Assembly: GCA_040768245.1 (NCBI GenBank)
Contig: JAXGNA010000005.1
Coordinates: forward strand, 36,716-100,715
Length of the DNA stretch: 64,000 nt
Direction of reading: 5' to 3'
Source of the DNA: Methanomassiliicoccales archaeon
GTDB lineage: Archaea; Thermoplasmatota; Thermoplasmata; Methanomassiliicoccales; UBA472
Both the position numbers and the translations under genes were made by a program. Shown in pieces: positions 3,906 through 33,080 of this stretch. Numbering within the stretch: position 1 is the stretch's first letter; the number at the start of each line of letters is the position of its first letter. The notes under the pieces are model-generated. The model was not told the DNA's origin. It saw only the letters and a list, made by a program, of their open reading frames with translations, and searched no databases.

Positions 3906-6900
3906 TCACAGCCGGCTCCAGTCGCGCTCCTCGGGCTCGGACGGTGCCGGGGCCAGTTCCTCTGGCCTCTGGACCTTCCCGCCGAGCACGAAGCCGCAGC
4001 GAGGACACTTTCCGCCGCTCTGGCATTCCTTGCACAGCATGCTGCCGCAATTGGCGCAGGTCGATACGGCCAGACCGCCATGGAACAGGCACTTGCGCCC
4101 CTGCATGTCGTCCAGCTTCTCCGGCTTCTTCTTCTCCTTGGGAGGGTAGATGGAATCGTAGAGGAATCGTTCCTCCTGGCCGAAGAGACGCACCCCGTCG
4201 CGTTCGTAATGGTCGTTGATGTCAGGGAGCATGACCGCGTCCGGTCCCTTCTCCGGCCTCTTCTTGCGCGGCGGTTCCACGAACAGGTCGTCCGTGGGAC
4301 GCTGCGCCGGGGGCGTCCGCTGACCCTTGGACCGCGGCATCGGCGCCGGGCGCTCCCCGGTCTTCAGGGAACCTATTATCGCCAATATGTTGCGCGCCTT
4401 GTACACCCCGATGTTCAGCCCTTCCATCAACGAGAAGAGGTTGCGCTTCTCCTCTGGCATGTTGAGCGCGGTGCGCAATAGCTTCTCCGTCTCCTGGTCC
4501 GGCATCACGTAGGTGAAATCGATGTCGTTGACCCCTTCGATGTAGCCGAGCACGCGCTTGGCCTGGGCGATGTCCCTCTCCGGGAGCGACGAGTATACGT
4601 CAGAAAGGCCCAGCCCGCCCTGTCCGCTTCTTGCTGAACGGTAATACATCAGCAGGGCGGTGCGGGACTGCACCTCCAGGGAGGCGAACTCCCCGTCGGA
4701 CAGCTGCGCCGGGTCCACGTACTCGCGCTGCTCCAGGAAGGCGAACACCTCGTCCAGCATCTGATACGGTACGTTGGCTTCCCGGAACACCTCCTCCTTG
4801 CTCATCCTCCGTCCGTTGCGGTACTGGAACTCCAGCACCTTCCCGGCCATCTCCGCTATCTGCTTCTCCCTCTGCTTCGCATCGGCCATGCGCAGCCCCT
4901 CGTTGGCCGAGGTCATGTTGGGGTTCAGTTCCAGGGCCTTCTCGAAGCCGCGGCGCGCCTGATCGTAACGTCCTAAGCGCAGAAGGGCGAACCCTTTCCC
5001 GTTCCAGGCCGCCGGGTCGCTGGGATCGAGGCCGATGGCGTTGTCATAGCTCTTCAGCACCTCCTCGTCCCGCTTCAGCTTCTCGGCGATGTCCGCCCGC
5101 TCCATCCAGCCGTGGCGGTTGCGCGGGTCCATGGTCAACGAGCGGTCCAGCAGCTCCATGGCCTTGCCCGGGTTGCCGAGCTTGTCCTCGATGAGCGCCA
5201 TGCCTTCCAGTACCGAGGGCTCGTTGGGCTCCTTCTCCAGCGCTTTGGCGTAGGAGTCCATGGCGTCCTCCAGGCGTCCGAGCTCCTCCATGACCCGGCC
5301 GCGCATCTTGAATATCGAGAACTCGTCCGCGCCCAGGTCCAACGCCCGGTTCAGGCAGATCATGGCGTTCTCCATCTCCCCCAGGCGGAACAGGGCGTTT
5401 CCCTTGTACTTCCAGGTCTGGGCGTCATTGCGGTCCAACGCCAGCGCTTTATCGAACGCCCCCACCGCATCCTCCAGGCGATTGAGGGACGCCAAGGTCC
5501 GTCCGCGGTCGCTGTGGTAGCGGGGCACGGTGCTGTCCATGCTGATGCATTGATCGAACACGTTCAGCGCCAGGTCGTAGTTGCGCATCATCAGCAGCGC
5601 CCGGCCCTTTTGCGACAAAGCGTCCACATCGTGGTTCAGCTGGAAGGCGGTATCGTACGTCTCCGCCGCCTCGCCGTACTTGCCCAGGGACATGAGCACC
5701 CGGCCCTTGCCCTTGTGCGGCAGCGGGTCGGACTCGTCCAGCATTATGACCGCGTTGAAGGTGGACAAGGCCTCCTCCAGCCGCACCAGCTTCTCCAGCG
5801 CCCCGGCCTTGTCCAGCAGGGCGGACTTGTTGCGCGGGTCCAGACGCAGGATGTCCTCGCAGACCTTCAGTATCTCCCCGGGATCGCCCTTGGCCACTAC
5901 GGCGGACCTCTTGAGCTGCAGGACGCTCATGTCCCCCGGCTCGACCTCCAGAGCCCGGTCGTACGAACGCACCGCCTCCAGGAAGTTGCTGAGGCGGAAC
6001 TGGGCCATGCCGCGGTCCACCCAGGCCTGCTTGTTCTTGGGCTCGATCTTCACGATGCGATCGCATACCTTTACGATGTCCTCGTATCGGCCCAATGACT
6101 TCAGGCTGTTCTTCTTGGCCGTCAGGACCTCGATGTCCTTGGGCCCCATCTCCAGCGCTTTGTCGAAGGACCCTACCGCCTCCTCGTGCCGCGATAGTTT
6201 GGCCAGCACCTGGCCGCGCCGGGCGTGCACGAAGCGCCCCTCCTTGTCCAGGGAAAGCGCGTGATCGTAGCAGGCCAGGGCCTCCTCGTGCCTCTCCAGC
6301 CACTCCAGGGCGATGCCCTTGGATATCCAGACGTTCTTGTCCTTGGGGTCCAACGTTATGGCCTGATCGTAGCAGACGATGGCCTCCTCGAAGCGACGCA
6401 GGCTTTCCAGGCATAGCCCCTTCTGATAGACCAGCTTCTGCTCCTGCGGCGACAGGGCGATCGCCCTCTCATAGGCCTTGACCGCCTCCTCGAAGCGTTT
6501 GAGCATGAACAGCGAATCGGCCTGGATGCGCCAGAAGACCAGCCTGTCCGGGTCGTGCAGGGCGCCCTGCGCCGCTCTGGCCAAGGCCTCCTCGTACTTC
6601 TCCAGCGAGAAAAGCGCCACGGATATACCGGTGGAGGCGTCCACGTCGTTGTGGTCTATGGCGAGAACCTGACCGTAAAGGCTTATGGCCTCCTCCTTCC
6701 GCCCCAGCCGGTCGACGGCCACCGCCTTGTCGAAGAGGGCGGACTTGTCGTTCGGCTTCACTCGCAGCAGGCGGTCGCTCACCTCGGCCACGTCCTTGTC
6801 CCGGGCGGCCCGCTTGAAACACTCGCGCAGCGATTCTAACATGATGGCGTCGTCGGGCCAGATCTTCAACCCCCGTTCGAAGGTCTTGATGGCCTCCACC

Positions 6901-8198
6901 ACGTTGCCCAGGCCCAACTGGGCCTGCCCCAGGTCCTGGAAGGCCGGAAGGTGCTCGACCCTGATGGCCAGCTGGGCCTCGCTGATGGTGATGACCTCCT
7001 GGAACCGCTTGTGCTTGGCGTGCAGGGAACGCCGGCGGTCCAGCACCTCCAGGTCCTTCGGGAAGGCCGTCTGGGCCTTGTCCAGATATGCTTCGGCCTC
7101 CTTCTCAGCATCCAGCCCGAGGAAGGTGTCGATGATGAACAGAAGGGTGGAGGGGTCATTGGGTGCGAAATCGATCATCTCCTGCGCCGCCGCGTCCAGG
7201 CCGGCGAGGTCCTTCAATGCCGCCAGCACGTTCATTCTTCCCTTGAGCGCGGGGACATCGTCAGGCATGATCTCCTTGAGCCTCTCGTAGGAACGGAGGC
7301 TCTCCTCGTACCTACCCAGGTCCATCAGCAGACCGGCCACCTCGGACCAGCCGGCGACGCTCTCCGGGTCCGATCGCAGGACGTTCTTGTAGTGCTCGAT
7401 CGCTTTCGTCCCATCGCCGGCGGCCCGCGCCTTCCTGGCCATGGTCAGGTTGGCCGTGCGGTTGAAGGGGTCCCGCTGCAGCACCTCGTCCAGCAGGTCG
7501 TCCGCCTCCTCCTGTTTCTCCAGCGCCTGCAGGGCCTCCACCTTGATCATCATCAGGGTGAGGTCGTTCGGTGAGATCTTGAGGGCGGCGTCCAGTTCGT
7601 AGAGCGCCGATTCCGCCCGGTCCTTATGGATGAGGGCGGAGGCCTTTCTGCCCAGCCATAGAGGCCGGTCATCCGTCATCTCCAGTATCATGTCGTAGGT
7701 TTCCTCGTGGAGCGGATCGGCGTCCAGTGCCTTGAGGAGGGCCTGCATGGCCTCCCCCCGTCGGTCCAGCTTGATCAGGAGGTCCTTTCTCTGGATGTGG
7801 GCGTCGCGGTCGTTGGGGAAGCTGGCCACCAGCTCGTCCAGCAAGGCCAGGGCATCCTCGGGACGGCCCATCTTACGCAACGCGGAGACCTTCAGTTTTA
7901 TGCCCGGCACATCCTTCGGCAGGGCCTTGATGAAACGGTCCAGGACCTGCAACGCTACTGTGTTCACCCCTAGTTCCAGGTAAATATTGGTAAGGCGGGA
8001 TAATGCGGCCCTGTAATCGTTCAGGTTGGAAACGGTCTGGGGGTCCAGACCTTCCAGGGCGAGCCGGGCCCTGTCGGCTTCCGCCACGGCCTTGTCCGTC
8101 TCCTTCAACTGCAGGTGCTTGTCGGCCGCGTCCAATGATCTCACGGCCTTCTTGACGGCCCTCGCCTCCGCATCCAACAAGCTGTTCAACAGACCCAT
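3906..8198 (-). CDS. Giant TPR-repeat protein with C-terminal Cys-rich zinc ribbon
   Basis: 1430-aa ORF. About 1000 aa are contiguous 34-residue TPR-like units (e.g. EEALACYDHALSLDKEGRFVHARRGQVLAKLSRHEEAVGSFDKALEMGP). A basic/Pro-rich linker follows, then the terminal cluster CANCGSMLCKECQSGGKCPRCG. Confidence 0.85.
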   Translation of the reverse strand: MGLLNSLLDAEARAVKKAVRSLDAADKHLQLKETDKAVAEADRARLALEGLDPQTVSNLNDYRAALSRLTNIYLELGVNTVALQVLDRFIKALPKDVPGIKLKVSALRKMGRPEDALALLDELVASFPNDRDAHIQRKDLLIKLDRRGEAMQALLKALDADPLHEETYDMILEMTDDRPLWLGRKASALIHKDRAESALYELDAALKISPNDLTLMMIKVEALQALEKQEEADDLLDEVLQRDPFNRTANLTMARKARAAGDGTKAIEHYKNVLRSDPESVAGWSEVAGLLMDLGRYEESLRSYERLKEIMPDDVPALKGRMNVLAALKDLAGLDAAAQEMIDFAPNDPSTLLFIIDTFLGLDAEKEAEAYLDKAQTAFPKDLEVLDRRRSLHAKHKRFQEVITISEAQLAIRVEHLPAFQDLGQAQLGLGNVVEAIKTFERGLKIWPDDAIMLESLRECFKRAARDKDVAEVSDRLLRVKPNDKSALFDKAVAVDRLGRKEEAISLYGQVLAIDHNDVDASTGISVALFSLEKYEEALARAAQGALHDPDRLVFWRIQADSLFMLKRFEEAVKAYERAIALSPQEQKLVYQKGLCLESLRRFEEAIVCYDQAITLDPKDKNVWISKGIALEWLERHEEALACYDHALSLDKEGRFVHARRGQVLAKLSRHEEAVGSFDKALEMGPKDIEVLTAKKNSLKSLGRYEDIVKVCDRIVKIEPKNKQAWVDRGMAQFRLSNFLEAVRSYDRALEVEPGDMSVLQLKRSAVVAKGDPGEILKVCEDILRLDPRNKSALLDKAGALEKLVRLEEALSTFNAVIMLDESDPLPHKGKGRVLMSLGKYGEAAETYDTAFQLNHDVDALSQKGRALLMMRNYDLALNVFDQCISMDSTVPRYHSDRGRTLASLNRLEDAVGAFDKALALDRNDAQTWKYKGNALFRLGEMENAMICLNRALDLGADEFSIFKMRGRVMEELGRLEDAMDSYAKALEKEPNEPSVLEGMALIEDKLGNPGKAMELLDRSLTMDPRNRHGWMERADIAEKLKRDEEVLKSYDNAIGLDPSDPAAWNGKGFALLRLGRYDQARRGFEKALELNPNMTSANEGLRMADAKQREKQIAEMAGKVLEFQYRNGRRMSKEEVFREANVPYQMLDEVFAFLEQREYVDPAQLSDGEFASLEVQSRTALLMYYRSARSGQGGLGLSDVYSSLPERDIAQAKRVLGYIEGVNDIDFTYVMPDQETEKLLRTALNMPEEKRNLFSLMEGLNIGVYKARNILAIIGSLKTGERPAPMPRSKGQRTPPAQRPTDDLFVEPPRKKRPEKGPDAVMLPDINDHYERDGVRLFGQEERFLYDSIYPPKEKKKPEKLDDMQGRKCLFHGGLAVSTCANCGSMLCKECQSGGKCPRCGFVLGGKVQRPEELAPAPSEPEERDWSRL

Positions 8199-8760: not shown

Positions 8761-8835
8761 GCAGGTGTAATCTAGCGGTCAGGATTTTAGCCTTCCAAGC
8801 TAACTACTCGGGTTCGAATCCCGACACCTGCACCA
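8761..8835 (+). tRNA. tRNA-Gly (anticodon UCC), CCA encoded
   Basis: Hand-folded cloverleaf. Acceptor GCAGGTG/CACCTGC, D stem ATCT/GGAT, anticodon stem TTAGC/GCTAA with loop CTTCCAA (TCC), T arm TCGGG-TTCGAAT-CCCGA, discriminator A at 8832, CCA at 8833-8835. Confidence 0.9.
8814..8833. repeat. attL: 20-bp direct repeat (3' end of tRNA-Gly)
   Basis: TCGAATCCCGACACCTGCAC is identical to 15027-15046. Confidence 0.85.
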
Positions 8836-17769: not shown

Positions 17770-18138
17770 TCAGAAGGTGGTGACCATGTCGTGCTCTTCG
17801 ATGATCTGCCTCGCCTTCTCCCAATCGATGACCTCCACCCCTTCCATGAGCGGAACGTCCCCGACCAGGTGCAGGAGGTCCTCCTTGACCACGTACACCT
17901 TCGCCTCGAAGTCCAGCAGGTCGTTGATGGCCTCCATGTTGGAGGGCATGCGCACCGCTTCCGGCCTCTGCGCGGCGACGGCGTTCAGCGTCCCCTCGCC
18001 CACCAGCAGCGCGTTGGAGACCGGGACCTGTCCCGACGCCAGCATTCCCAGTCCAGCGCGGAGCCCGGCGAAGGCCTCCTCGTAACCGTACGGGGGCTTC
18101 GTGACCAATATCAGCAAGCTTTCGGCCATCTTGATCAC
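17770..18138 (-). CDS. DsrF/TusC-like sulfur-relay protein
   Basis: 122 aa. LLILVTKPPYGYEEAFAGLRAGLGMLASGQ...LLVGEGTLNAV matches the DsrE/F-fold pattern without an active-site Cys. The start overlaps the upstream gene by 4 nt. Confidence 0.7.
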   Translation of the reverse strand: MIKMAESLLILVTKPPYGYEEAFAGLRAGLGMLASGQVPVSNALLVGEGTLNAVAAQRPEAVRMPSNMEAINDLLDFEAKVYVVKEDLLHLVGDVPLMEGVEVIDWEKARQIIEEHDMVTTF

Positions 18139-18491
18139 CTCGCGATGGTCACCATGCGGTCGCCCTCGGCCACGAACCTGGAAAGGTCGTTGGTCAGGCT
18201 GCCGATCTTGGTGCCTTCGATCTCCTCTCCCCTGGCCACGCCCCGGGCCTTGCAGCAGGTCTCACATACCACGACCTCCAGGCCCTTCGGGAGCATCTCC
18301 TTCGTCTCGTTCCCCACGTTCGGGAAGCGCTTGGGGTCCTGACCCTTCTTGATCAGGGTGACCCCCTCGCCGTAGCCGAAGATGCGCACCCCGTACCCTT
18401 TGTCCAGGGCGGCCTGCGCCAGCTTCACCGCGACGTTGGAGTCCATGTTCATCATGGTGCCGGTCCTCAATTGGATAACCATTGTCTTCAT
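18135..18491 (-). CDS. DsrE/TusD-like sulfur-relay protein
   Basis: 118 aa with a DsrE-fold pattern and a Cys cluster VVVCETCCKARG at the position of the persulfide-carrying Cys. Confidence 0.7.
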   Translation of the reverse strand: MKTMVIQLRTGTMMNMDSNVAVKLAQAALDKGYGVRIFGYGEGVTLIKKGQDPKRFPNVGNETKEMLPKGLEVVVCETCCKARGVARGEEIEGTKIGSLTNDLSRFVAEGDRMVTIAR

Positions 18492-18500
18492 GTTCTCGCC

Positions 18501-18800
18501 TCACACCGTGATGGTCTGCTCGTATCTCTCCATGATCAGCTCGACCGCTTCCGGATAGTCCACGATCTTGAACTCGGGAACCGCAAGCGGCAGACCGCGG
18601 GCCTCCCAGTCGTCCTTCATGATGTAGACCTTTTGCACCGCGGATAGCAGCTCCCTGCCCCTCTTGGCGTTGGCGGCGAAGATCACCGCGTCCTCGAAGA
18701 GGAGCAGGGCGCTCTGGGCCCCTTTGGCGGACGCACGCATCAGTTCCAAACCGCCGAACTCGTGCGGCGACTTCAGCGTTATGAACAGCTTGGACTTCAT
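18501..18800 (-). CDS. DsrH/TusB-like protein
   Basis: 99 aa. ALLLFEDAVIFA...KVYIMKDDWEARGL...IVDYPEAVELI matches the DsrH pattern (LxxDGV ... Dl.aRGl ... vdy..fv.l). Confidence 0.65.
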   Translation of the reverse strand: MKSKLFITLKSPHEFGGLELMRASAKGAQSALLLFEDAVIFAANAKRGRELLSAVQKVYIMKDDWEARGLPLAVPEFKIVDYPEAVELIMERYEQTITV

Positions 18801-18810
18801 GGGACCACCT

Positions 18811-19230
18811 TCAGCCGATGAACAGCTGCATGTCCGAGTCGGTACCTATGTCCAGGAAGGCCGCGGCGCCGAGAACGGTTATTCCGTCCACCAGGTCCTC
18901 CTTCTTGATGCCCATCATCTCCATGGAGGTGCTGCAGGCGTAGATCTTGATCCCCAGCTCCTTGGCCATCTCCAGCTGCTCCTGGAAGCCCTCGATCCCG
19001 ATGCCCTTCATCTTCTTCTTCATCATGCCGGTGAAGAAACGGTATATTCCCGGCATCTTCGGATTGGCTCCCTTCTTCAGCAGGTTCAGCCCGAAGAAGG
19101 TGAAGAAGATATGAGTCTCGATGCCCATGCTGGCGGCCGTGTTGCCCATCATCATGGACATCATGGCCTTGTCGAAGGTGCCCTCGGACACCACCATTGC
19201 GAACTTCTTGGTCTCTGCCATTTTATTCAC
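18811..19230 (-). CDS. DsrE2-like (DsrE/DsrF/DsrH-like family, COG2044-type) protein
   Basis: 139 aa. KFAMVVSEGTFDKAMMSMMMGNTAASMGIETHIFFTFFGL ... IKIYACSTSMEMMG, with a conserved Cys in the ACST motif. Confidence 0.6.
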   Translation of the reverse strand: MNKMAETKKFAMVVSEGTFDKAMMSMMMGNTAASMGIETHIFFTFFGLNLLKKGANPKMPGIYRFFTGMMKKKMKGIGIEGFQEQLEMAKELGIKIYACSTSMEMMGIKKEDLVDGITVLGAAAFLDIGTDSDMQLFIG

Positions 19231-19244
19231 CTCTATGACCTATC

Positions 19245-19487
19245 TCACTGGACCTTTTTTATGTAGAAGTAGAACGCCCCGCCCTCTTCCTTCTGGCCTA
19301 CGAGCTGGTTGCCGGTCCTCTTGCACCAGGCCGGCACGTCCTCCTTGGAGCCCACATCGTCCGCGATCAGCTCCAGGACCTCTCCGACCTTCAGTTCCTT
19401 CATCTTCTTGGCCAGCTTCACGATGGGCATTGGGCACATCAAGCCCTTGGCGTCAAGTGTATCGTTCTTGTCCATAATGATCACCAT
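19245..19487 (-). CDS. tusA: TusA/SirA-family sulfur carrier
   Basis: 80 aa with the signature LDAKGLMCPMPIVK (CPxP active-site Cys). Confidence 0.85.
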   Translation of the reverse strand: MVIIMDKNDTLDAKGLMCPMPIVKLAKKMKELKVGEVLELIADDVGSKEDVPAWCKRTGNQLVGQKEEGGAFYFYIKKVQ

Positions 19488-19565: not shown

Positions 19566-19925
19566 ATGCCGGAGTCCATCAAGGACGTGAACAGCTGCCA
19601 GGACCTGGTCCAGTGCGCCTACAGCCTCAACGGGTTCGAGGTCGAGGTGTACGAACGATTGCTGGAGGCCGGGCCGGTGAACGCCAACGACCTCGCCGAT
19701 CAGATGGGCAAGGACCGCTCGACCGTGTACCGAGCATTGCAGAAGATGCTCAGCTGCGGCATGGTTTTACGGGAGACCTGCAGCATACCCCGCGGTGGAT
19801 ACTTCCATGTCTACCGGGCCATAAGCCGGAGGGAGCTCAGGGAGAAGCTGGAGAGCTGCGTGGAGAACTGGTACCGCAAGATGCAGGACGCCTTGGAGCA
19901 GTTCGGCGCCGCGGACGGCGATTGA
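19566..19925 (+). CDS. Winged-helix (TrmB-like) transcriptional regulator, divergent from the sulfur-relay operon
   Basis: FEVEVYERLLEAGPVNANDLADQMGKDRSTVYRALQKMLSCGMVLRE is an HTH plus wing. Five Cys residues are present. Confidence 0.6.
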   Translation: MPESIKDVNSCQDLVQCAYSLNGFEVEVYERLLEAGPVNANDLADQMGKDRSTVYRALQKMLSCGMVLRETCSIPRGGYFHVYRAISRRELREKLESCVENWYRKMQDALEQFGAADGD

Positions 19926-22317: not shown

Positions 22318-25300
22318 GTGGGCATGAGACGTTCAGCGGTAGCCGTGCTGTTATTCCTATTCGTCATCAGCGCGGTCGCTCCATCCCTAGCGGTCCCTTC
22401 CTGGCCTACCGAACCGACCGCCCTCTATGAACATACTGGCATCGATGATGGGTCATCACTTTTCGACGAGTTCGCTCAGACCCTGATCATACCGGGAGAG
22501 CCGAGGGATAGTGTGCTGGCCGACCTGAACAACGACACGCGCGAGGACCTTGCGGTCATTTACAAGGGCTCGACCTCCCTGGACGTGTTCTTTTTCGACC
22601 CGGCGATCGGGTTTTCGAACTCCAACCGGACCAGGATCGCGCTCCCTTACGAGATCACGGACCTGGCCATCGGGGACATGGATGGAGATACCAAACTGGA
22701 CATCGTGCTCGTTCTCAACGTCACCGCCCTCACCAACCTGGTCGTGCTATACCAATCCTCCAACTTCCAGATGGGAAGTTCATTCACGAAGCCCATCGAT
22801 TACCGCCCGTTGACGGTGAACGTGGGCAATTTCACTGGGTCCTCCCTACCGGAGATCGCGTTGACCGTAATGGCGGCCGGTGGTCCCAGGTTCCTGATCT
22901 ATGAGTGGTCGATCGGCACATACCAGTATTGGGTCGAACCATTGCCTCTGAATCCCGCACCTTTGAGCATGGTCAGGCCGAGCATGACCGAGATAGGCGA
23001 CCTGAACCAGGATGGGTTGAACGACCTGGTGATCGGAGACCGTACCTCAGGAAAGGTGGCCGGGTTCCTTAACCCGGGACATGGGGCGTGGGGTGCAAAC
23101 TATAGCACGTCCCGAAACCTTCCAACGACCCTTATGCTGGGCGACCTGGATGGCGACGGCTCATTGGAACTCACTGTGGCCGAAGAGGGTTTGGAGGACC
23201 CCCTGGTGACCGTTTGGGACTGCACGCCGACCGGATTCAGCGCCATCACGAACATTGATACAATATCGACGATGAACTCGCTCGCCGCCTTGAAATTGAA
23301 CACCGACCTAAGAATGGAGATAGCCGCCGCTTCGGCTGACAATAATGATATCAGCATTTTCAAGGCCGCCGCCTCCGGTAGCCTATCCTACCCGGAATCC
23401 ATCAATTTCCCTGTGCCAAGAATGCCGGTGAGCATCTTCGCCGCGGACATGAACGGGGATGGCGAAGATGATATCTTGCTTACATCCTGCCCATCGAACG
23501 GCTACGGCGCGATCTCCGTATACCTCCAGAGCGGGGACACGCTGTCCAACGCTAATGACAATCAACCGCTTCCTGTCACCCAGGTCAACTCGGCCACCGT
23601 CGGCGACATGGATGGGGACGGAGGCAACGAGATCATCACCTATGACGGATCGGGGCCGATCATATGGTTCTCCAGGGAAGGCTTCCCGGAGCTGAGGTGG
23701 GTCCCCGCCCCGCTCAACGTTTCGGTCATGGAATGCGTGGACCTGAACGGGGACGGGCGAGAGGACCTGGTCATGGTCCAATCGGCTCCGGCGCAGGTTA
23801 CTGTCTGGTATGGCGATCCGGATGTGCTGAAAACCGATCACGCGATAACCAGCGTCTCCCTGGCATATTCGATGTCCCAGGGACTGTCGATGACCGCGGG
23901 GGACCTGGACGGTGACGGTGACCTGGACCTGGCGATCGGAGGGGACGGGGCGGTGGACATTTTCTGGAATTCCGGGACCGCTGCGGCATACTCTCAAGGG
24001 CAGCGATTCACGCTTACGCTTGCCGGGGCTTCAGTGACGTCATTGACCACCATCCGGATACAGGGATCCGCCCACAATGACGCCCTGCGGGACCTGGCCC
24101 TGGTCAACGGGACAACTTCGAGAACGGAGATCTACTTCCAGCAGACGACAGGGGCCAGGTTCGTTACCAGTGACCGCTTGTTGCTAACGCCTGCGGCCGG
24201 CCTGTTCGGTTTGACCGCAAAGGACCTGAGCGGGGACGGCAGAGAGGACCTGTTGGCCGGGATCTCTCAGGCGTTGCGCCTCCTGGTCCAGAACCCTGGG
24301 TACACCAAGGGATTCCTGGATGGACAGACCCCGGAGGACCTGCCGGTGCCGGAAAGGCCCCGTTCTTTCACCATAGGCGATCTGGACGATGACGGTGCAC
24401 CGGAGATCGGTCTGATGACCGCCAATTCCACGATCGAGGCTTATGAGAGGACCGGCATGGGTTTCGTGCTCTTGACCAGGCAGACCGCAGGCTCCTCCCC
24501 GGCATTCCTTTCATTGGCGGACATGGACGATGATGGCAAGCAGGATATCGTGGTGGTCTCCTCCTTGTCACGGACGACCTCCATTTACTACCAGAACAAC
24601 TTCGCCCCGACGGCCAAGGGTTCCGTGGACGGCAGCGGACATCTGGAAGGGGATTACCTGACGTTCAACGCCACCCTCAGTACGGATGGCCGGTCCGATC
24701 GGGACCGCCTTACCTACATCTGGGACTTCGGGGATGGAGGCACCAATACCACCACCGAGAAGCTGACCACGCATCGTTACCTGCGCAACGATACCTTCCA
24801 AGTGGTCCTGACCGCAAGGGACCCCGCCGGCCTGACGAACCATACATCCTTCCAGGTGAGCGTGGGCGATAAAGGACCCTCGGCCTCGCTGACCTATGAT
24901 GGGACGACCTTGTTCGAAGGAACCCCGGTCCAGTTCAGGGACAACAGCACCTCCTTTCCGGATACGATAGACAAATGGCGATGGGCGTTCGGGGACGGAG
25001 GTACGTCTGAGCTAAGGAACCCCTCGCACACCTATGCCCATAACGGCAATTACACCGTCACCCTGACGGTCTGGGACAAGGATGGGACGAACGATACTGC
25101 CAGCATCGCGGTCATCATCTTAGATACCGCCCCCACCGCCCAGTTCTCCTTTTCCCCTTCATCGCCTTTGGAGGGACAGAACGTCACCTTCACTGACGCT
25201 TCCTCGCCCGGGGTCGACAGCATAGAGAGCTGGTACTGGGACTTCGGGGATGGCCGAACTTTGACCGCTTACGGTGGGTCGGTGCAGCACATCTATACCG

Positions 25301-26742
25301 ATAACGGGACCTACCTGGTGAGCCTGACCATAACCGACGCGGACGGTAGCAACGATACCATCACCAGAACCGTTGTGGTCCTGGACACCAGCCCGGTCAT
25401 CTCGAGCCTTTACGTGGTCGGCGGTTCCACCTCGTTCAAGGAGGGGGACGACGTGGAGTTCAAGGTGAACGCCTCGCCGCTGTTCGGGACGATCGTCCGT
25501 TACCAGTGGGATTTCCAGACCGAGACCTTCCAGGCAGATGAGACGACGAACGTGTACACGGCCATCCACTCCTACAACTTCTCGGGAACGTATCGCGTGA
25601 CCGTGCGGGTCTGGGACATCGATAGCTACACCGATACCTCCATTCAGATCACCATAACCGATCCAGCCCCCGTGCCGGATTTCACTGCGTCCACCAACGC
25701 CGCCAACCGTACCGTTTCCTTCTCCGCCGCCCTGACCCTGGACACGGAGAACGACATGCCCTTGCTGGAGTACCGCTGGTTCTTCGGTGACGGGGAGCAG
25801 AGCGAGTGGTCCAATTCGTCCAAGGCCAAACATACCTATGATTTGGATGGGATCTACTCCGTGCGTCTAGAGGTGCGGGACGACCACAACCCCGCGGTCA
25901 TGCGCACCAAGAACGTGACCATCGACCTTCTTCCGCCAATAATATCCATGGACGATCCGGTGCTGAAGGCTATCGTCGGCGAGCCCACCCTGGTCCGGGT
26001 CAACGTGACCGACCTGGTGGGCATCGGCTCGGTCAAACTGGAGTACACCATCGGAAATGTCACTCGTACCGTGGTAATGACCCATGAGGGCGGCGGCATC
26101 TACTTCGCCCAGATCCCCGCGCAGAACCGCACCATGGAGCTTCAGTATCGCATCATCGCCGAGGACATGGCAGGTCACTCCGCCACCACCGAGCAGTTCA
26201 CCCTTGCCCTGGAATACGAGGACCCCTCGCTGTTCATCTACACGTCCCTGATACTGCTGACGGCCTTCCTGGTCATCATAATCTACCTGTTCCTGTCCCG
26301 GCCGATCGTGGACGAGGTGTTCGTGATGTACCATGATGGAACGCTCCTAGCGCATCAGACCAGGCGCCTCAAGCCGGGGATGGATGACGAGATATTGGGC
26401 GGAATGCTCATCGCCCTGCAGAACTTCGTGCGCGATTCGTTCAAGGACGAGAACTCGACCGTGCTGAGGCGCATGGACTTCGGAGAACGGAAATTGCTGG
26501 TGGAGCGCAAGGACGACTTCTTCATGGCCGTGGTGCTCAGCGGCAAGCGCGCCGGGAACGCCGCGCAGCGTATGCTCAGGGTCCTCGACAACATCGAGGA
26601 GGGCTACGCCCCGGTGCTCAGGGAGTGGGACGGAGACCTGGAGAAGGTGCGCGGCATAAGGGATGAAACGAAGCCGATGTTCTCCCGCGCCAACCCCCTG
26701 GACCTTCTGAAACGCAAGGAAGGGGAAGACGATTCGATTTAA
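22318..26742 (+). CDS. Giant surface protein: FG-GAP/VCBS repeats, PKD modules, one TM helix, cytoplasmic Roadblock/longin-like tail
   Basis: Signal/anchor MRRSAVAVLLFLFVISAVAPSLA. At least 11 Asp-rich FG-GAP-type loops (GDMDGDTKLDIV, GDLNQDGLNDLV, ADMNGDGEDDIL, VDLNGDGREDLV, GDLDGDGDLDLA, ADMDDDGKQDIV ...). Five PKD-like modules (WDFGDGGT.., WAFGDGGT.., WDFGDGRT.., WDFQTETF.., WFFGDGEQ..). TM helix LFIYTSLILLTAFLVIIIYLFL (about 26224-26295). 148-aa tail. Confidence 0.85.
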   Translation: MGMRRSAVAVLLFLFVISAVAPSLAVPSWPTEPTALYEHTGIDDGSSLFDEFAQTLIIPGEPRDSVLADLNNDTREDLAVIYKGSTSLDVFFFDPAIGFSNSNRTRIALPYEITDLAIGDMDGDTKLDIVLVLNVTALTNLVVLYQSSNFQMGSSFTKPIDYRPLTVNVGNFTGSSLPEIALTVMAAGGPRFLIYEWSIGTYQYWVEPLPLNPAPLSMVRPSMTEIGDLNQDGLNDLVIGDRTSGKVAGFLNPGHGAWGANYSTSRNLPTTLMLGDLDGDGSLELTVAEEGLEDPLVTVWDCTPTGFSAITNIDTISTMNSLAALKLNTDLRMEIAAASADNNDISIFKAAASGSLSYPESINFPVPRMPVSIFAADMNGDGEDDILLTSCPSNGYGAISVYLQSGDTLSNANDNQPLPVTQVNSATVGDMDGDGGNEIITYDGSGPIIWFSREGFPELRWVPAPLNVSVMECVDLNGDGREDLVMVQSAPAQVTVWYGDPDVLKTDHAITSVSLAYSMSQGLSMTAGDLDGDGDLDLAIGGDGAVDIFWNSGTAAAYSQGQRFTLTLAGASVTSLTTIRIQGSAHNDALRDLALVNGTTSRTEIYFQQTTGARFVTSDRLLLTPAAGLFGLTAKDLSGDGREDLLAGISQALRLLVQNPGYTKGFLDGQTPEDLPVPERPRSFTIGDLDDDGAPEIGLMTANSTIEAYERTGMGFVLLTRQTAGSSPAFLSLADMDDDGKQDIVVVSSLSRTTSIYYQNNFAPTAKGSVDGSGHLEGDYLTFNATLSTDGRSDRDRLTYIWDFGDGGTNTTTEKLTTHRYLRNDTFQVVLTARDPAGLTNHTSFQVSVGDKGPSASLTYDGTTLFEGTPVQFRDNSTSFPDTIDKWRWAFGDGGTSELRNPSHTYAHNGNYTVTLTVWDKDGTNDTASIAVIILDTAPTAQFSFSPSSPLEGQNVTFTDASSPGVDSIESWYWDFGDGRTLTAYGGSVQHIYTDNGTYLVSLTITDADGSNDTITRTVVVLDTSPVISSLYVVGGSTSFKEGDDVEFKVNASPLFGTIVRYQWDFQTETFQADETTNVYTAIHSYNFSGTYRVTVRVWDIDSYTDTSIQITITDPAPVPDFTASTNAANRTVSFSAALTLDTENDMPLLEYRWFFGDGEQSEWSNSSKAKHTYDLDGIYSVRLEVRDDHNPAVMRTKNVTIDLLPPIISMDDPVLKAIVGEPTLVRVNVTDLVGIGSVKLEYTIGNVTRTVVMTHEGGGIYFAQIPAQNRTMELQYRIIAEDMAGHSATTEQFTLALEYEDPSLFIYTSLILLTAFLVIIIYLFLSRPIVDEVFVMYHDGTLLAHQTRRLKPGMDDEILGGMLIALQNFVRDSFKDENSTVLRRMDFGERKLLVERKDDFFMAVVLSGKRAGNAAQRMLRVLDNIEEGYAPVLREWDGDLEKVRGIRDETKPMFSRANPLDLLKRKEGEDDSI

Positions 26743-26760: not shown

Positions 26761-27489
26761 GTGGGCGGAATGATCACCGTGGAGCAGGCGGTCATAGTGC
26801 TAGTGCTTTGCGCGGCGCTCTCTGCGCTATCGTGGAAGCTGGGGCTGTTGACCGCCGATGGCAGCTTGGCCTCGTTCGGAGTGGGCATGGTCCTCGGCGT
26901 CTTGGGGGGCATAGGGTGGCTCCTGCTGCTGGTCCTCTTCGCCTTCATCGGGTTCCTGGTCACCAAGTTCAAGATGGAACTGAAGATCAAGAAGGGGGTG
27001 CAGGAAGGCAAGAAGGGAGAGAGGAACTACCGTAACGTCCTGGCGAACGGAGCGGTGCCCATGGCCATCGCCTTGTTGACGTCCCTGGTGGGCTGGGAGG
27101 GCGAGCTTCCCGCGTTGATCTACATGAGCGCCGTCTGCGTCGCCGCCGCGGACACGACGGCAAGCGAGCTGGGCGTGCTCTCCGACCGGACGTACATGAT
27201 CACCAATTTCAAGCGCGTGCCGCCGGGAGTGGACGGCGGGGTCTCGCTTTACGGAACGGGATGGGCCATCGCCGCCTCGGCGTTCGCCGCCCTGGCCGGA
27301 TGGATAGTGATACTGGGAACCTGGCCTTCGCTCCTGCTCCTCATACCGGTATCCATGGGCGTCCTGGGATGCTTCATCGACAGCGTGATCGGCGCTACGC
27401 TGGAAACGAGGGGATGGGTGACCAAGCTGTGGAACAACATCACCTCCATGGCCTTGGGCGCGGCCATCGCCCTGCTCGTTCTTTTATAA
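26761..27489 (+). CDS. Integral membrane protein, DUF92/TMEM19 (TIGR00297-like) family
   Basis: 242 aa, multi-pass. Motifs KKGERNYRNVLANG, AAADTTASELG and GVDGGVSLYGT are typical of DUF92. Confidence 0.7.
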   Translation: MGGMITVEQAVIVLVLCAALSALSWKLGLLTADGSLASFGVGMVLGVLGGIGWLLLLVLFAFIGFLVTKFKMELKIKKGVQEGKKGERNYRNVLANGAVPMAIALLTSLVGWEGELPALIYMSAVCVAAADTTASELGVLSDRTYMITNFKRVPPGVDGGVSLYGTGWAIAASAFAALAGWIVILGTWPSLLLLIPVSMGVLGCFIDSVIGATLETRGWVTKLWNNITSMALGAAIALLVLL

Positions 27490-28282: not shown

Positions 28283-31200
28283 CTAGGGGTGTATACCGCC
28301 CTCGTTGTACTCGGCCAGCAACTCCGCCAGGTCGTGGGCCATCTGCTGGTCCTCTGCCGAGAGCGGGTCACCGATCTGGTGGACTTCCAGGAAGTCCGTG
28401 GCATCCTCGATGACGCCGACGTACTTCGCCGGGGCCCCCCACATCTCATCGTTCAGCATGGCGGCCATGTACTGGTGCGCCAGGACGATGATCATATCGC
28501 CCGCGGGCGGGGTCCAGAACACCTCCATCCAGGTCATGCCGGAATCGAAGAACATGGCGTCAGGGCTTATTCCGACCCATGCATCCCCGTGGTTCTTCCA
28601 GTATCCCTGGGTGGCGGCGTAGTACCAGATGTCCACGCACACTCTAGCCGTATCGTTCACCCACATGTCCCACTCGACCGGCCCGGCCTGTCCGTAGGCG
28701 GTGGCAACGTTGCAGATCTTGTCGCCCTCATAGTCCTCAGGTATCGTGTACTCGTAGGTGAACTCCCACCACTCTCCGACCTCCAGGATGCCATCCTCGT
28801 ATCCTTCGTAGTCATGGAGCCAGAAGGTCTCATTGAGCAGGGAGTCGTACACGTGCACATTGTACAGAGGCACGTTGCCGCAGTTGGTGACGTTCACCGT
28901 GTAGATCAGTTTACCGCCGGGTATCGCCATTCCGCTGTGGTTGCCCTCATTGTAATCGGTCAGGACTTCCGCCAGCATCAAGGCGTACTCACGGTCCTCG
29001 CCCTGCGGGTTGCTGCCTACGGGGTGCTCCAGCAGGAACTCCTCGGCATCCTCGATGAATCCATCGTAGACGTCCGGGGCGCCCCACTTCAGGTCGTTCA
29101 GCTTGGCCGCCAGGTACTGGTGGGCCAGGATGATCGAGGCATCTCCCTTCGGAGCGGTGTTGAACACCTGGATGAAGCTCAGTCCACCAGGGAACTTAGT
29201 GAAATCAACCGCCTGCGTGCCGCCTATCGAGAACGGTGCATACGGGCAGATCTCCTCCCAGGCGCTCAGGTGGTTCTTCCAGTATCCCTGGGTGTGCGAC
29301 TGATACTCCTCCTCGACGTCCCACCACACGCTCTTGGTCACGTTGATGCACGGCAGCACCTCGAAGTTGGTGAAGTTGAAGGAGTACACAGCTCCGCTGG
29401 TGACCGGTCCGAACTCATGCTCGGTGTCGGTCGTCGGCAGCCATCCGACTATCTCCTCTTCACCTACCTTGTACTTACCAGGCCCGAGATCGAACCAGGT
29501 GTGGCAGCCGCAGGTTCCGGTGTAGTTGGTGTCGATTAGGTCCCAATCCTCGCCGTTCCACTTGTACAGGTAGACCTCCCAACCTTCGATCGGGGAGTCG
29601 TCATCGCTCAGTCCGTCACCGGTGAGGTCCTCAAGCTTGCAGACGGTGATGGCCACCAGCTTGAAGTTCAGGAAGGTGACGGATTCGCACCCACCTGACT
29701 CATCGATGGTAACCATCTGAGTGACACCACCATTGGTGTTGGCCCAGCCATCAGGCAGAACCTCCTCGACGGTGTAGCTGCCCAGCTCCAGGTCCTCGAA
29801 GCAGACCTTTCCGTCCGCTCCAGTGACGCCGGAGTCGATAGGCTCCTCACCCTCGGAGATAGCGCCCATGTACAGGTTGATAGTGACGCCGGATACCGCC
29901 GGTTCGCCCTCGTCCCAGTTACCGTCGCCGTTAAGATCGTCGTACTTGAACACGCAGATCTTGCCGAGGCGGATGTTCAGGAAGGTGACCACTTCGGTTT
30001 CCCCAACAACATCGACGGTGACCTCCTGGGTCAGAGAACCATCGGTGTACCAGCCTTCGAGCATGATCTCCTCGACCGTGTACAATCCGAAATTGAGACC
30101 ATTGAAGCAGACCTTTCCGTCCGCTCCAGTGACGCCGGAGTCGATAGGCTCCTCACCCTCGGAGATAGCGCCCTTGTACAAGTTGACAGTGACGCCTGGC
30201 ACCGCCGGTTCTCCCTCGTCCCAGTTACCGTCGCCGTTAAGATCGTCGAATTTGTATACGCATATATTACCAAGAGGATAGTTGTAGAAGGTCATCGCAA
30301 TCTCTTGGTCGGCGGTGGTCAAAGTAATGTATTTCGGCTCCGCACTAGTATAGTTCGAATTTGGCGCGGATACTTCAACCATCTTGTAATTGCCGAGCAT
30401 CAGGTTCTCCCAGAACTCGGTATATCCATCGGAACCGGTGACCTTGGTGCCCAGAGAGTTCCATGCTCCGTTCTGGTAGAACAGTTCGAACGTCCAGCCA
30501 ACACCCGGAGAACGGTCGGTAGTGGTGGTCAGATCACCATCGTTATCGATGATCTTGTGCGCCCTTATCTTCCCGGGCATGGAGTTACCGAAATCGATCC
30601 CGGTGTGGACGAGCGCTGTGCCATTAACTGTTACGGTGTACGTAGCGTTGGTCGGATAGGTCTGGGTCCACCCTAGTTTCTGAACTTCGGATATAATGTA
30701 TATTCCCCACGGGACCTGAGAGAAACTGTAGCTCCCATCGGATGCCGTGGTGGTTTCCATATGGATCGGGAATCCGCCAAAGGACGTTCCATTGAGTATT
30801 ATGGTCCAATTGGACAGACCACTCTCACCTGGATCCCTTATGTGGTTAGAGTTGGCATCGTTGAACTTCATTCCGGAGATGCTTCCCGCAGCATATGTGA
30901 CAGGGATGCTCTGGGTCTGTGCGCTCGTTCCAGTGAACACCAGGGACAGAGCTACCTGCAGGGACGCCCCTGGGAAGTAAGCCGCACCGTAGTAGTAGCC
31001 CATCGGTACGCCCTGCCCAGGAGTGGTCTGTACATTGCTGTAGAATGCCGTCTCCGCCACATGAGCCTGGAAGTAGATGTATATCGATGTTCCGACCGGC
31101 ACGGTGAAGAAGCCTGCCGAGAACATGTAGTAGTTCTGTATCGTCTGTCCGCTCATTCCGAAGAACTGGTTCGATAATGTCGGTACGATCGGGTCAACCA

Positions 31201-31378
31201 CGTTCATGGTGTTGGTGACCCCTTCGGATTGGGCAGGGAACTGTACCGTCCAGTCCGCCCTGTTGTATCCCCACAGAACTTCAGCATCTATACCATATGC
31301 TGTTTTTCCCTTGTTGAAATGATCATATACGGAATCAAGTTGTGGTGACGAATTATTCGTTCCTGTGTCGTGCGTCAA
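28283..31378 (-). CDS. Large adhesin-like surface protein with SdrD-B/Cna-B-type modules and duplicated C-terminal modules (body of gene; see 31439-31597)
   Basis: 1031-aa ORF beginning at a TTG. Several modules of the form kFnD.NgNG..D.GE.G..GvTv.L...G....tTTd.dG.Y.F..l..G.Y.V.E, e.g. ICVYKFDDLNGDGNWDEGEPAVPGVTVNLY...GADGKVCFNGLNFGLYTVEE. Two TQGYWKNH...LAHQY.AA.LN..WGAP..Y.G.IEDA..FL modules. Confidence 0.8.
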   Translation of the reverse strand: MTHDTGTNNSSPQLDSVYDHFNKGKTAYGIDAEVLWGYNRADWTVQFPAQSEGVTNTMNVVDPIVPTLSNQFFGMSGQTIQNYYMFSAGFFTVPVGTSIYIYFQAHVAETAFYSNVQTTPGQGVPMGYYYGAAYFPGASLQVALSLVFTGTSAQTQSIPVTYAAGSISGMKFNDANSNHIRDPGESGLSNWTIILNGTSFGGFPIHMETTTASDGSYSFSQVPWGIYIISEVQKLGWTQTYPTNATYTVTVNGTALVHTGIDFGNSMPGKIRAHKIIDNDGDLTTTTDRSPGVGWTFELFYQNGAWNSLGTKVTGSDGYTEFWENLMLGNYKMVEVSAPNSNYTSAEPKYITLTTADQEIAMTFYNYPLGNICVYKFDDLNGDGNWDEGEPAVPGVTVNLYKGAISEGEEPIDSGVTGADGKVCFNGLNFGLYTVEEIMLEGWYTDGSLTQEVTVDVVGETEVVTFLNIRLGKICVFKYDDLNGDGNWDEGEPAVSGVTINLYMGAISEGEEPIDSGVTGADGKVCFEDLELGSYTVEEVLPDGWANTNGGVTQMVTIDESGGCESVTFLNFKLVAITVCKLEDLTGDGLSDDDSPIEGWEVYLYKWNGEDWDLIDTNYTGTCGCHTWFDLGPGKYKVGEEEIVGWLPTTDTEHEFGPVTSGAVYSFNFTNFEVLPCINVTKSVWWDVEEEYQSHTQGYWKNHLSAWEEICPYAPFSIGGTQAVDFTKFPGGLSFIQVFNTAPKGDASIILAHQYLAAKLNDLKWGAPDVYDGFIEDAEEFLLEHPVGSNPQGEDREYALMLAEVLTDYNEGNHSGMAIPGGKLIYTVNVTNCGNVPLYNVHVYDSLLNETFWLHDYEGYEDGILEVGEWWEFTYEYTIPEDYEGDKICNVATAYGQAGPVEWDMWVNDTARVCVDIWYYAATQGYWKNHGDAWVGISPDAMFFDSGMTWMEVFWTPPAGDMIIVLAHQYMAAMLNDEMWGAPAKYVGVIEDATDFLEVHQIGDPLSAEDQQMAHDLAELLAEYNEGGIHP
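29798..30251 (-). repeat. In-frame 306-nt tandem duplication inside the adhesin gene
   Basis: A 70-nt block is identical at 29798-29867 and 30104-30173 (offset 306 nt = 102 codons). High identity continues for roughly 80 more nt. Confidence 0.8.
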
Positions 31379-32354: not shown

Positions 32355-33080
32355 ATGCGCTCCCGCAACAAGGAGTATATCGAGCGGATGATGGACAAGG
32401 ACGATGCGTACAACACCCTCGCCACCACCAAGGCCATCGCCGCCTCCCTCAAACAAAAGGGGAGGGACACCAAGGAAGCCGACATGGTCATGATCCAGGC
32501 CGATAATGCTTACAAACGCAACAACTACATCGCTGCGAGGGACCAGGCCAAGCGTGCCCGCGAACTCTTGATGAAGGCGCCTATGTTGGAGGTCGCCGCT
32601 CCCAGGTCTGCCGAGACCGTCTCAGAAGAGCAGCCCGAAGAGGAGCATAAGATGGTGCACGAGGTCAAGAAGCTCGAGCCGCACATGCTCGAGTCGCGAT
32701 TTATCATCAATGCCTGCCGTGGTAGGATCGAGACCGCTGAGGGCTCAGGCAAGGACGTCCTCAAAGCCAAGGACGCTCTGGCCAGGGCGGAAAAGTGCTT
32801 TGAGGATAAGAAATACGATGAGGCCCTGCGCGAAGGCCTTCGGGTCCGGAAGATGCTTGGTGAAGAACCGTCGGAACCGGAAGCGGTCAAGGAGGCGGTG
32901 ATCGTCAAGGTCCCCAAGCCAGAGAGGAAGTGCGAGAAGTGCTCCAATACCATCAGCAACGATGATGTTTTCTGCCGCAAGTGCGGCGCGCCGGTGGTAG
33001 TAAAACGCGCCTGTGCCTATTGCCGCGCCGATCTGGAGACTGGCGACATATTCTGTCCAAAATGCGGCCGCAAGGCCTGA
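32355..33080 (+). CDS. Coiled-coil protein with C-terminal double zinc ribbon (probably membrane-anchored; true start likely near 32265-32280)
   Basis: C-terminus CEKCSNTISNDDVFCRKCGAPVVVKRACAYCRADLETGDIFCPKCG, with Lys/Glu/Ala-rich helical repeats before it. The in-frame upstream sequence encodes the TM helix IFLIALLVVLGIVIYL (see finding). Confidence 0.6.
   Translation: MRSRNKEYIERMMDKDDAYNTLATTKAIAASLKQKGRDTKEADMVMIQADNAYKRNNYIAARDQAKRARELLMKAPMLEVAAPRSAETVSEEQPEEEHKMVHEVKKLEPHMLESRFIINACRGRIETAEGSGKDVLKAKDALARAEKCFEDKKYDEALREGLRVRKMLGEEPSEPEAVKEAVIVKVPKPERKCEKCSNTISNDDVFCRKCGAPVVVKRACAYCRADLETGDIFCPKCGRKA

Follow-up and report, generated by a model that had tools for sequence, protein, structure and literature searches.

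A longin-like domain predicted beneath a giant surface protein of Methanomassiliicoccales and its genomic linkage to DUF835

Introduction

The 64,000-nucleotide stretch of a Methanomassiliicoccales archaeon analysed here (contig JAXGNA010000005.1; below, the window) encodes, at 22318 to 26742 on the forward strand, a type-I membrane protein of 1474 amino acids (aa) with a very large outer part made mostly of FG-GAP and PKD repeats. No other part of this protein is as conserved as the sequence after its single transmembrane helix. Why would a giant surface protein be held most constant on the inner side of the membrane? To our knowledge, little is known about transmembrane information transfer in archaea beyond two-component and chemotaxis systems. 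We find that the ~125 aa directly inside the membrane form a conserved, hitherto unannotated domain, that its fold is predicted to be of the longin type, and that it is linked, through gene neighbourhood and through fusion, to DUF835. The architecture of the receptor, its topology logic, the fold prediction, the constraint on the tail and the genomic and fusion linkage of tail and DUF835 are established in this analysis. As an explanation we tentatively favour that the protein, which comes from a Methanomassiliicoccus-like archaeon, is a receptor or adhesin at the cell surface and that its longin-like tail serves as a dock for an adaptor of the DUF835 (iKaiC) type.

A conserved domain beneath the membrane

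The receptor gene, an open reading frame (ORF), and its parts are as follows.

22318..26742, + strand: whole gene, type-I membrane protein of 1474 aa; ORF with a GTG start
22318..22392, + strand: Sec-type signal peptide, aa 1-25 (MRR, hydrophobic core, APSLA/VP; APSLA/VPS); from hydropathy and sequence
22495..24627, + strand: FG-GAP beta-propeller region, aa ~60-770; from Pfam and loop count; hypervariable among close relatives
24640..25902, + strand: five tandem PKD domains forming the stalk, aa ~775-1195; from Pfam and WxFGDG signatures
25903..26217, + strand: membrane-proximal Ig-like domain, aa ~1196-1300; co-conserved with transmembrane helix and tail, no Pfam match
26230..26295, + strand: single transmembrane helix, aa 1305-1326 (LFIYTSLILLTAFLVIIIYLFL); from hydropathy
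26305..26691, + strand: core of the cytoplasmic juxtamembrane domain, aa 1330-1458; unannotated family, predicted longin/Roadblock-like fold

What is the domain at the inner end? Taken alone, the tail finds no match in Pfam (E<=1; 2025 copy), including Robl_LC7, Longin (PF13774) and Clat_adaptor_s (PF01217), and none in NCBIfam (2026), while its best sequence match in the PDB has E=0.98. Six-frame translation of the window yielded no second copy. A word-indexed search returned 17 homologues with 48-95% identity, all from Methanomassiliicoccales or metagenomes; with a diverse alignment, the word-indexed profile search gave short fragments only. The homologue alignment contains ~25 invariant positions (invariant residues: H20, R23, R24, K26-P27-G28-M29-D30, S48-F49-K50, F62-G63, E70, W111-D112-G113 and R119-G120).

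The family is far larger than these close relatives. Against 1.84 billion cluster representatives, the tail profile recovered 4596 at E<=1e-3, of which 2820 pass a cut-off of 1e-10 and 377 one of 1e-30. Every taxonomically labelled member belongs to Thermoplasmata, Methanomassiliicoccales or 'Thermoplasmatota', and as far as labels go the family is specific to Thermoplasmatota. Public names are limited to 'PKD domain-containing protein', 'PKD repeat protein', 'TIGR01451 repeat protein' and 'hypothetical', and no paper describing the family was found in the searchable literature. The architecture that dominates in the 148 best representatives and in 80 metagenome loci consists of a signal peptide, an ectodomain of 1,000-2,500 aa, one transmembrane segment and the tail at the C-terminus. 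The receptor architecture is thus not rare; it is the dominant one of a family with thousands of members. The ectodomains that precede the tail are of FG-GAP/PKD, DUF11, CARDB, He_PIG, Big_9, Glucodextran_C (SLH-like) and PQQ/WD40-propeller types.

Other members place the domain in different settings. Some polytopic proteins carry two tandem tail domains, as would suit a domain functioning in (pseudo)dimeric form; in some proteins the tail is joined to a long coiled coil, and elsewhere it occurs in soluble proteins that lack a transmembrane segment or is fused to DUF835 and TPR modules. The soluble forms include giant proteins of 1300-2400 aa with no predicted transmembrane segment (P0018, P0088, P0064 and similar), and in them a CARDB-like Ig domain plus tail domain is repeated two to three times before a C-terminal DUF5915. 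The parts of the ectodomain are ordinary. What is new is the tail family, with its predicted fold of longin/Roadblock type, together with the receptor architecture in which it occurs and a proposed partner that has an NTPase fold but is not a GTPase.

Predicted fold of the tail

The tail was modelled with AlphaFold2 on a 16-sequence alignment. The model reached a predicted local distance difference test score (pLDDT) of 79.4 and a predicted template modelling score (pTM) of 0.74, and four of the five models scored alike (mean pLDDT 76.8-79.4). Strands at 4-12 and 17-22 precede a helix at 31-50, three further strands (59-62, 65-71 and 75-82), a second helix at 89-109 and short helices; the acidic end of the tail, aa 1459-1474 of the protein, is modelled with low confidence. 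This order, b-b-a-b-b-b-a, is the longin order and corresponds, by prediction only, to the longin topology b-b-a-b-b-b-a-a.

Searched against the PDB with Foldseek, the model gave 30 matches at E<=1e-3, and the 50 best are all of longin or Roadblock type. Longin matches lead, with the sigma and mu-N subunits of AP-1/2/3, zeta-COP and Mon1-Ccz1 (E 1e-5 to 1e-3, template modelling scores ~0.45-0.55); the longin domains of TRAPP and CPLANE fall just past E 1e-3, and GATOR1 is also among the 50 best. The Roadblock-type matches comprise dynein LC7, Asgard Roadblock2, MglC, MglB and LAMTOR (E ~4e-4 to 2e-3), of which MglB/C and LAMTOR lie just beyond E 1e-3. Measured against the Roadblock order a-b-b-a-b-b-b, the model is without the N-terminal helix a1, and the remainder superposes on LC7, MglB, MglC and LAMTOR with template modelling scores of 0.35-0.41. 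The tail is accordingly predicted to adopt a longin-type fold within the longin/Roadblock group. An earlier sequence-only reading of this DNA had guessed at such a fold from the pattern of strands and helices, and the model speaks for that guess. The likeness does not extend to sequence profiles: beyond the lack of a Robl_LC7 or Longin match in Pfam, hhalign placed the tail profile in register with the Roadblock proteins of related loci without significance (probability 1.6%, E=0.032).

How close, then, is the tail to known members of these groups? Longin domains (the SNARE-like fold of AP sigma/mu-N, zeta-COP, Mon1/Ccz1, TRAPP Bet5/Trs23 and CPLANE) share its order of secondary structure and provide its best Foldseek matches, and they are dimerising platforms that dock partners of NTPase fold at membranes. 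The tail differs from them in having no detectable sequence relation, in being covalently tethered to the transmembrane helix of a giant surface protein, in being linked to a partner of RecA/KaiC-type fold rather than a small GTPase, and in that its labelled members come from Thermoplasmatota, not from eukaryotes or Asgard archaea. With the Roadblock/LC7/MglB family (PF03259; MglB, MglC, LAMTOR, dynein LC7, Asgard Roadblock2) it shares an a/b sandwich with a five-stranded sheet, but a transmembrane helix comes first where that family has helix a1, the Pfam match is missing and a motif scan found no GTPase gene in the window. Koonin and Aravind reportedly proposed in 2000 that the Roadblock/LC7/MglB family regulates NTPases.

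Linkage of the tail to DUF835

To what might such a domain connect? Two genes follow the receptor on the same strand.

26761..27489, + strand: DUF92 polytopic membrane protein; starts 18 bp past the receptor stop codon
27538..27996, + strand: DUF835-like protein of 152 aa, 'iKaiC'; RecA/KaiC-type fold model, no Walker A; two genes downstream of the receptor

The model of the DUF835-like protein (AlphaFold2, pLDDT 81.6, pTM 0.79) finds RecA, FlaH/ArlH (TMq 0.62), Elp4/5/6 and KaiC as its best Foldseek matches, and the protein has no Walker A motif (GxxxxGK[ST]). Homologues that are 53-99% identical to it are assigned to PF05763. Of 85 related loci, 27 have a DUF835-type gene behind DUF92 on the same strand, and 8 metagenome loci also have one in that place. 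The neighbourhood of DUF92 and DUF835, which the sequence-only reading had singled out, is thus conserved in related loci.

The two domains also meet within single chains. In a pool of 295 tail-domain proteins, six contain both tail and DUF835, in three arrangements. DUF835 precedes the tail in four of them: P0107 (110.7 bits), P0150 (93.4 bits), L096, which adds TPR repeats, and L140. The order in P0159 is transmembrane segment, tail, DUF835. L143 is a complete receptor, with signal peptide, ectodomain, transmembrane helix at aa 1860-1881, tail at 1894-2015 and DUF835 at 2285-2396. That both orders exist indicates independent events; for joint action of the two domains, these fusions are our strongest evidence. 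Neither DUF92 nor a GTPase was ever fused to the tail in the fusions observed.

DUF835 goes by the name 'iKaiC', for an inactivated domain of KaiC type, and serves as the output domain of REC-DUF835 response regulators in Methanomicrobia and Thermoplasmata; NitrOD3, another output domain of archaeal response regulators, is related to Roadblock/LC7 (Galperin et al. 2018, PMC5847659). The neighbour in the window and the fused domains are likewise PF05763, RecA/KaiC/FlaH-like and devoid of Walker A. The difference is that DUF835 is tied here to the tail of a transmembrane receptor and not to a REC receiver, a combination that was not found in the searchable literature.

Receptor, coat protein, sensor or GTPase partner?

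How might the parts work together? On the reading that we favour, two FG-GAP propellers would be held outside the cell on a stalk of five PKD domains and one Ig-like domain. By analogy with longin and Roadblock domains elsewhere, the tail would act as a juxtamembrane platform for dimerisation and docking; it would recruit the small inactive KaiC/RecA-like DUF835 protein encoded two genes downstream, and binding to the ectodomain, or its clustering, would be relayed to the KaiC/REC-DUF835 signalling network. That the tail contacts DUF835, that it dimerises, which way the signal travels and what kind of ligand is involved belong to the inferred part of this reading. Several observations weigh against this reading. 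The DUF835 copy in the window scores 27.8 bits against PF05763, under the gathering threshold of 33.1. Where the sequence of an orthologous locus extends far enough downstream, DUF835 adjoins it in only about a third of cases (24 of 71), and DUF835 is absent near the paralogue group of DUF11 type. Moreover, the receptor lies within a conserved housekeeping block (pyrBI, kinase, DUF92, IPK, IDI2, GGPPS, RadB), and part of the adjacency to DUF835 may be synteny inherited within one class.

Could the protein simply be part of the cell envelope? It may be a glycocalyx or S-layer-like glycoprotein of the mostly wall-less Thermoplasmatota, in which the tail merely anchors or oligomerises the protein, through a lattice or cytoskeletal attachment, and carries no signal. 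We hold this structural role to be unlikely on balance, although it is the alternative that we take most seriously: the gene is near-universal and syntenic across Methanomassiliicoccales and Thermoplasmata, its ectodomain has 26 sequons, one and the same tail stands behind many ectodomains of adhesin or S-layer type, exposed coat proteins typically are hypervariable on the outside, and most loci have no DUF835 nearby. A mere anchor, however, needs neither ~25 invariant polar residues nor 87-96% identity beside an ectodomain at 22-50%, and the domain is also found in soluble proteins lacking a transmembrane segment and in fusions with DUF835 and TPR, which are typical signalling and scaffolding partners.

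The remaining explanations make the tail a sensor or a partner of a GTPase, and we regard both as improbable. As a PAS/GAF-like sensor of small ligands or lipid headgroups, the tail would control the ectodomain from inside out, or would sense the membrane or isoprenoids together with DUF92. The longin fold is considered a relative of the GAF/PAS folds, and VTE6, the phytyl-phosphate kinase of plants, is a member of DUF92. Beside the membrane there is a basic invariant loop (HQTRRLKPGMDD), modelled with low confidence, as expected of a loop that depends on a ligand or partner; in 80 of 82 loci the next gene downstream is DUF92, and IPK, IDI2 and GGPPS come after it. Yet no PAS or GAF structure is among the 50 best Foldseek matches of the tail model, the fusions never involve DUF92, and the basic-loop motif is specific to the subfamily rather than family-wide. 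Still less credible is the proposal of the sequence-only reading that the tail partners a small Ras/Arf/MglA-like GTPase in the manner of MglB, LAMTOR or a longin domain (as GTPase-activating protein, guanine-nucleotide exchange factor or platform), with integrin-like signalling from outside in. It draws on fold matches that include MglB, MglC, LAMTOR, Mon1-Ccz1 and the longin subunits of AP and COPI, which bind Arf, Rab, Rag or MglA GTPases, and on a Robl_LC7 gene 6-7 kb upstream, on the other strand, in 12 related loci. Against it, a motif scan found no gene with both G1 and G4 in the 64-kb window, no recurrent GTPase cluster appeared among the neighbours of 85 and 80 related loci, and a Roadblock HMM detected no Roadblock gene in the window. 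The tail matches none of the three Pfam families named above or, by hhalign, the neighbouring Roadblock family, and the fusions observed join it to DUF835, never to a GTPase.

What would a receptor with a docking tail mean? In this arrangement a predicted longin/Roadblock-like fold sits at the inner face of the membrane, with very large, quickly diversifying ectodomains outside, and that fold is linked to DUF835/iKaiC, for which a role as signalling output has already been suspected. Should the contact between tail and iKaiC be real, the Methanomassiliicoccales, methanogens that live in gut and sediment, and the wall-less Thermoplasmata would offer a receptor-adaptor pair that can be tested; DUF835 would gain its first upstream partner, and longin-type platforms would be widened beyond GTPase regulation and beyond the Asgard-eukaryote line. 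A larger claim, which we consider doubtful, is that Thermoplasmatota possess a lineage-wide form of transmembrane signalling of an undescribed type, running from diverse, fast-evolving ectodomains through a membrane-tethered longin-like domain to DUF835 adaptors. Were it true, the longin/Roadblock-NTPase pairing would have a counterpart that does without a GTPase, cell-surface sensing would be connected to the KaiC-centred network proposed for archaea, and membrane-anchored longin-type platforms would exist outside Asgard archaea and eukaryotes.

Architecture and variability of the ectodomain

The overall topology put forward in the sequence-only reading, namely a signal peptide, an FG-GAP/PKD ectodomain, one transmembrane helix and a globular cytoplasmic domain that is retained, is upheld by Pfam and hydropathy. 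Only two segments of the receptor are strongly hydrophobic (aa 1-25 and aa 1305-1326), and a marginal one, aa 126-147, falls within the FG-GAP region. Of the 27 N-x-S/T sequons, 26 are N-terminal of the transmembrane helix, which fits an ectodomain on the outside, and the receptor is probably heavily N-glycosylated. After the helix 148 aa remain to the C-terminus, as had been stated together with the correct tail sequence. That the helix might be a cleaved C-terminal sorting signal is contradicted by the absence of any PGF-CTERM-type match in NCBIfam and by the high conservation of the 148 residues that follow. As to the beginning of the protein, the sequence makes an ATG two codons downstream, at 22324 behind GGGGTG, more likely to be the true start than the GTG. 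A scan for sigma-70 promoters and terminators was uninformative, the host being an archaeon.

Pfam assigns FG-GAP_3 at E=2.2e-45 (10 stretches) and FG-GAP at E=4.3e-23 (6 stretches) to the receptor, and PKD_4 and PKD, in five stretches each, at E=2.5e-69 and E=6.4e-58. The 'at least 11' calcium-type loops noted earlier became 12 in a regular-expression count of clear DxDxDG-type loops, spaced by ~50 aa. Two gaps in the series fit degenerate blades, giving 14 blades (12 clear and two degenerate), which probably form two seven-bladed propellers. The five PKD modules reported before agree with the Pfam stretches and with five WxFGDG signatures at aa 802, 889, 974, 1064 and 1154; the Ig-like domain between the fifth of them and the transmembrane helix (aa ~1196-1300) had been missed.

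Is the receptor, then, an archaeal integrin? The likeness holds for the layout. Integrin alpha also has an FG-GAP propeller with calcium-binding loops on an Ig-like stalk and one transmembrane helix, and each protein has a cytoplasmic segment that recruits adaptors, an activity that in the receptor is proposed. The receptor differs in having two propellers (14 blades), in PKD domains that replace thigh and calf, in the lack of an Integrin_alpha2 match in Pfam (E<=1) and of GFFKR, and in a tail that is a folded domain of ~125 aa. No vWA gene, as would encode an integrin beta/vWA partner, is present among the annotated neighbours. The description 'integrin-like' can therefore stand as an analogy of layout and fails as a claim of membership, there being no integrin-specific domain, no beta subunit and no GFFKR tail.

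Comparison with the closest relatives separates the two ends of the protein sharply. The DNA flanking the gene in L003 and L005 is ~86% identical to the window. Similarity by blastn ends at ~22375, just past the signal peptide, and returns at 25026 or 25573. Protein identity to these relatives is 22-50% over aa 100-1100 and 87-96% over the last 300 aa. This suggests, from sequence comparison, that the outer ectodomain is hypervariable through cassette exchange or strong diversifying selection, while the pattern of identities places the module of Ig-like domain, transmembrane helix and tail under strong purifying selection. Such an ectodomain likely marks the receptor as an interface with viruses, hosts or substrates. 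Across 22376-25573, the FG-GAP region and the first PKD domains have no detectable DNA similarity to L003 and L005, and the boundaries of this segment are sharp, the second lying within the PKD stalk.

A 92%-identical relative (L083/L084) carries a frameshift in the segment that codes for the transmembrane helix (9900-10010), which splits the orthologue into an ectodomain ORF of 1362 aa and a tail ORF of 136 aa. The frameshifted sequence is identical in contigs of two different samples, and the copy in the window is intact; the lesion could be an assembly error or be specific to a strain.

Genomic neighbourhood and other features of the window

The DUF92 gene was found immediately downstream of the receptor among 82 related loci from GTDB species genomes, at the frequency given above. 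Its functional link to the receptor is uncertain, since it also abuts the isoprenoid gene block and may belong with the isoprenoid genes; a literature search on DUF92 returned unrelated DUF92x terms only. Upstream of the receptor, 23-34 of these 82 loci retain pyrB-pyrI, an AAA_17/18 kinase-like gene and a small ORF. Genes that recur further downstream encode a double-zinc-ribbon protein, isopentenyl-phosphate kinase (IPK; AA_kinase), IDI2 (FMN_dh), a polyprenyl synthase (GGPPS) and a RadB/KaiC-like ATPase. The paralogue group of DUF11 type has other neighbours: two 'genes' of 149 and 277 aa that resemble antisense shadow ORFs, a 172-aa protein that could not be related to DUF835, Roadblock or the tail, and a divergent Lhr helicase, which offers no functional clue.

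The zinc-ribbon gene of the window (32355-33080, + strand) encodes a helical protein that ends in a double zinc ribbon, and it recurs downstream in 51 related loci. A zinc ribbon also stands directly after the tail domain in P0004, P0006, P0014 and P0080. The idea that zinc ribbons on tails substitute for a DUF835 gene was rejected for want of complementarity (counts 5/10/19/37). Between the DUF835 and zinc-ribbon genes, which are close together in most related loci, lies a second large surface protein (28283-31378, - strand) of 1031 aa with a TTG start and SdrD_B, SpaA and DUF7507 repeats. Its counterpart in L083 exceeds 3175 aa, and the GC content of the window falls to 0.48 at 30-32 kb; the gene looks like a variable adhesin insertion.

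Three further features lie upstream. The 1430-aa protein encoded at 3906-8198 (- strand) consists almost wholly of TPR repeats, which also occur after the tail in L096 and in the soluble multi-copy giants (P0018). From 8761 to 15000 extends a low-GC island (0.46-0.50 versus ~0.62), probably an integrated mobile element, that starts at a tRNA-Gly (8761-8835) and contains a tyrosine integrase (8836-10128, - strand), an IS110-family transposase broken up between two ORFs (11527-11958 and 11966-12733) and, at 10452-11117 and 13534-14784 (- strand), ORFs without annotation. Upstream of pyrBI and beside a TrmB-type regulator, a sulfur-relay cluster of DsrE/DsrF/DsrH-like (17770-19487, - strand) and TusA-like (19566-19925, + strand) genes is annotated from the identical gene order in L083.

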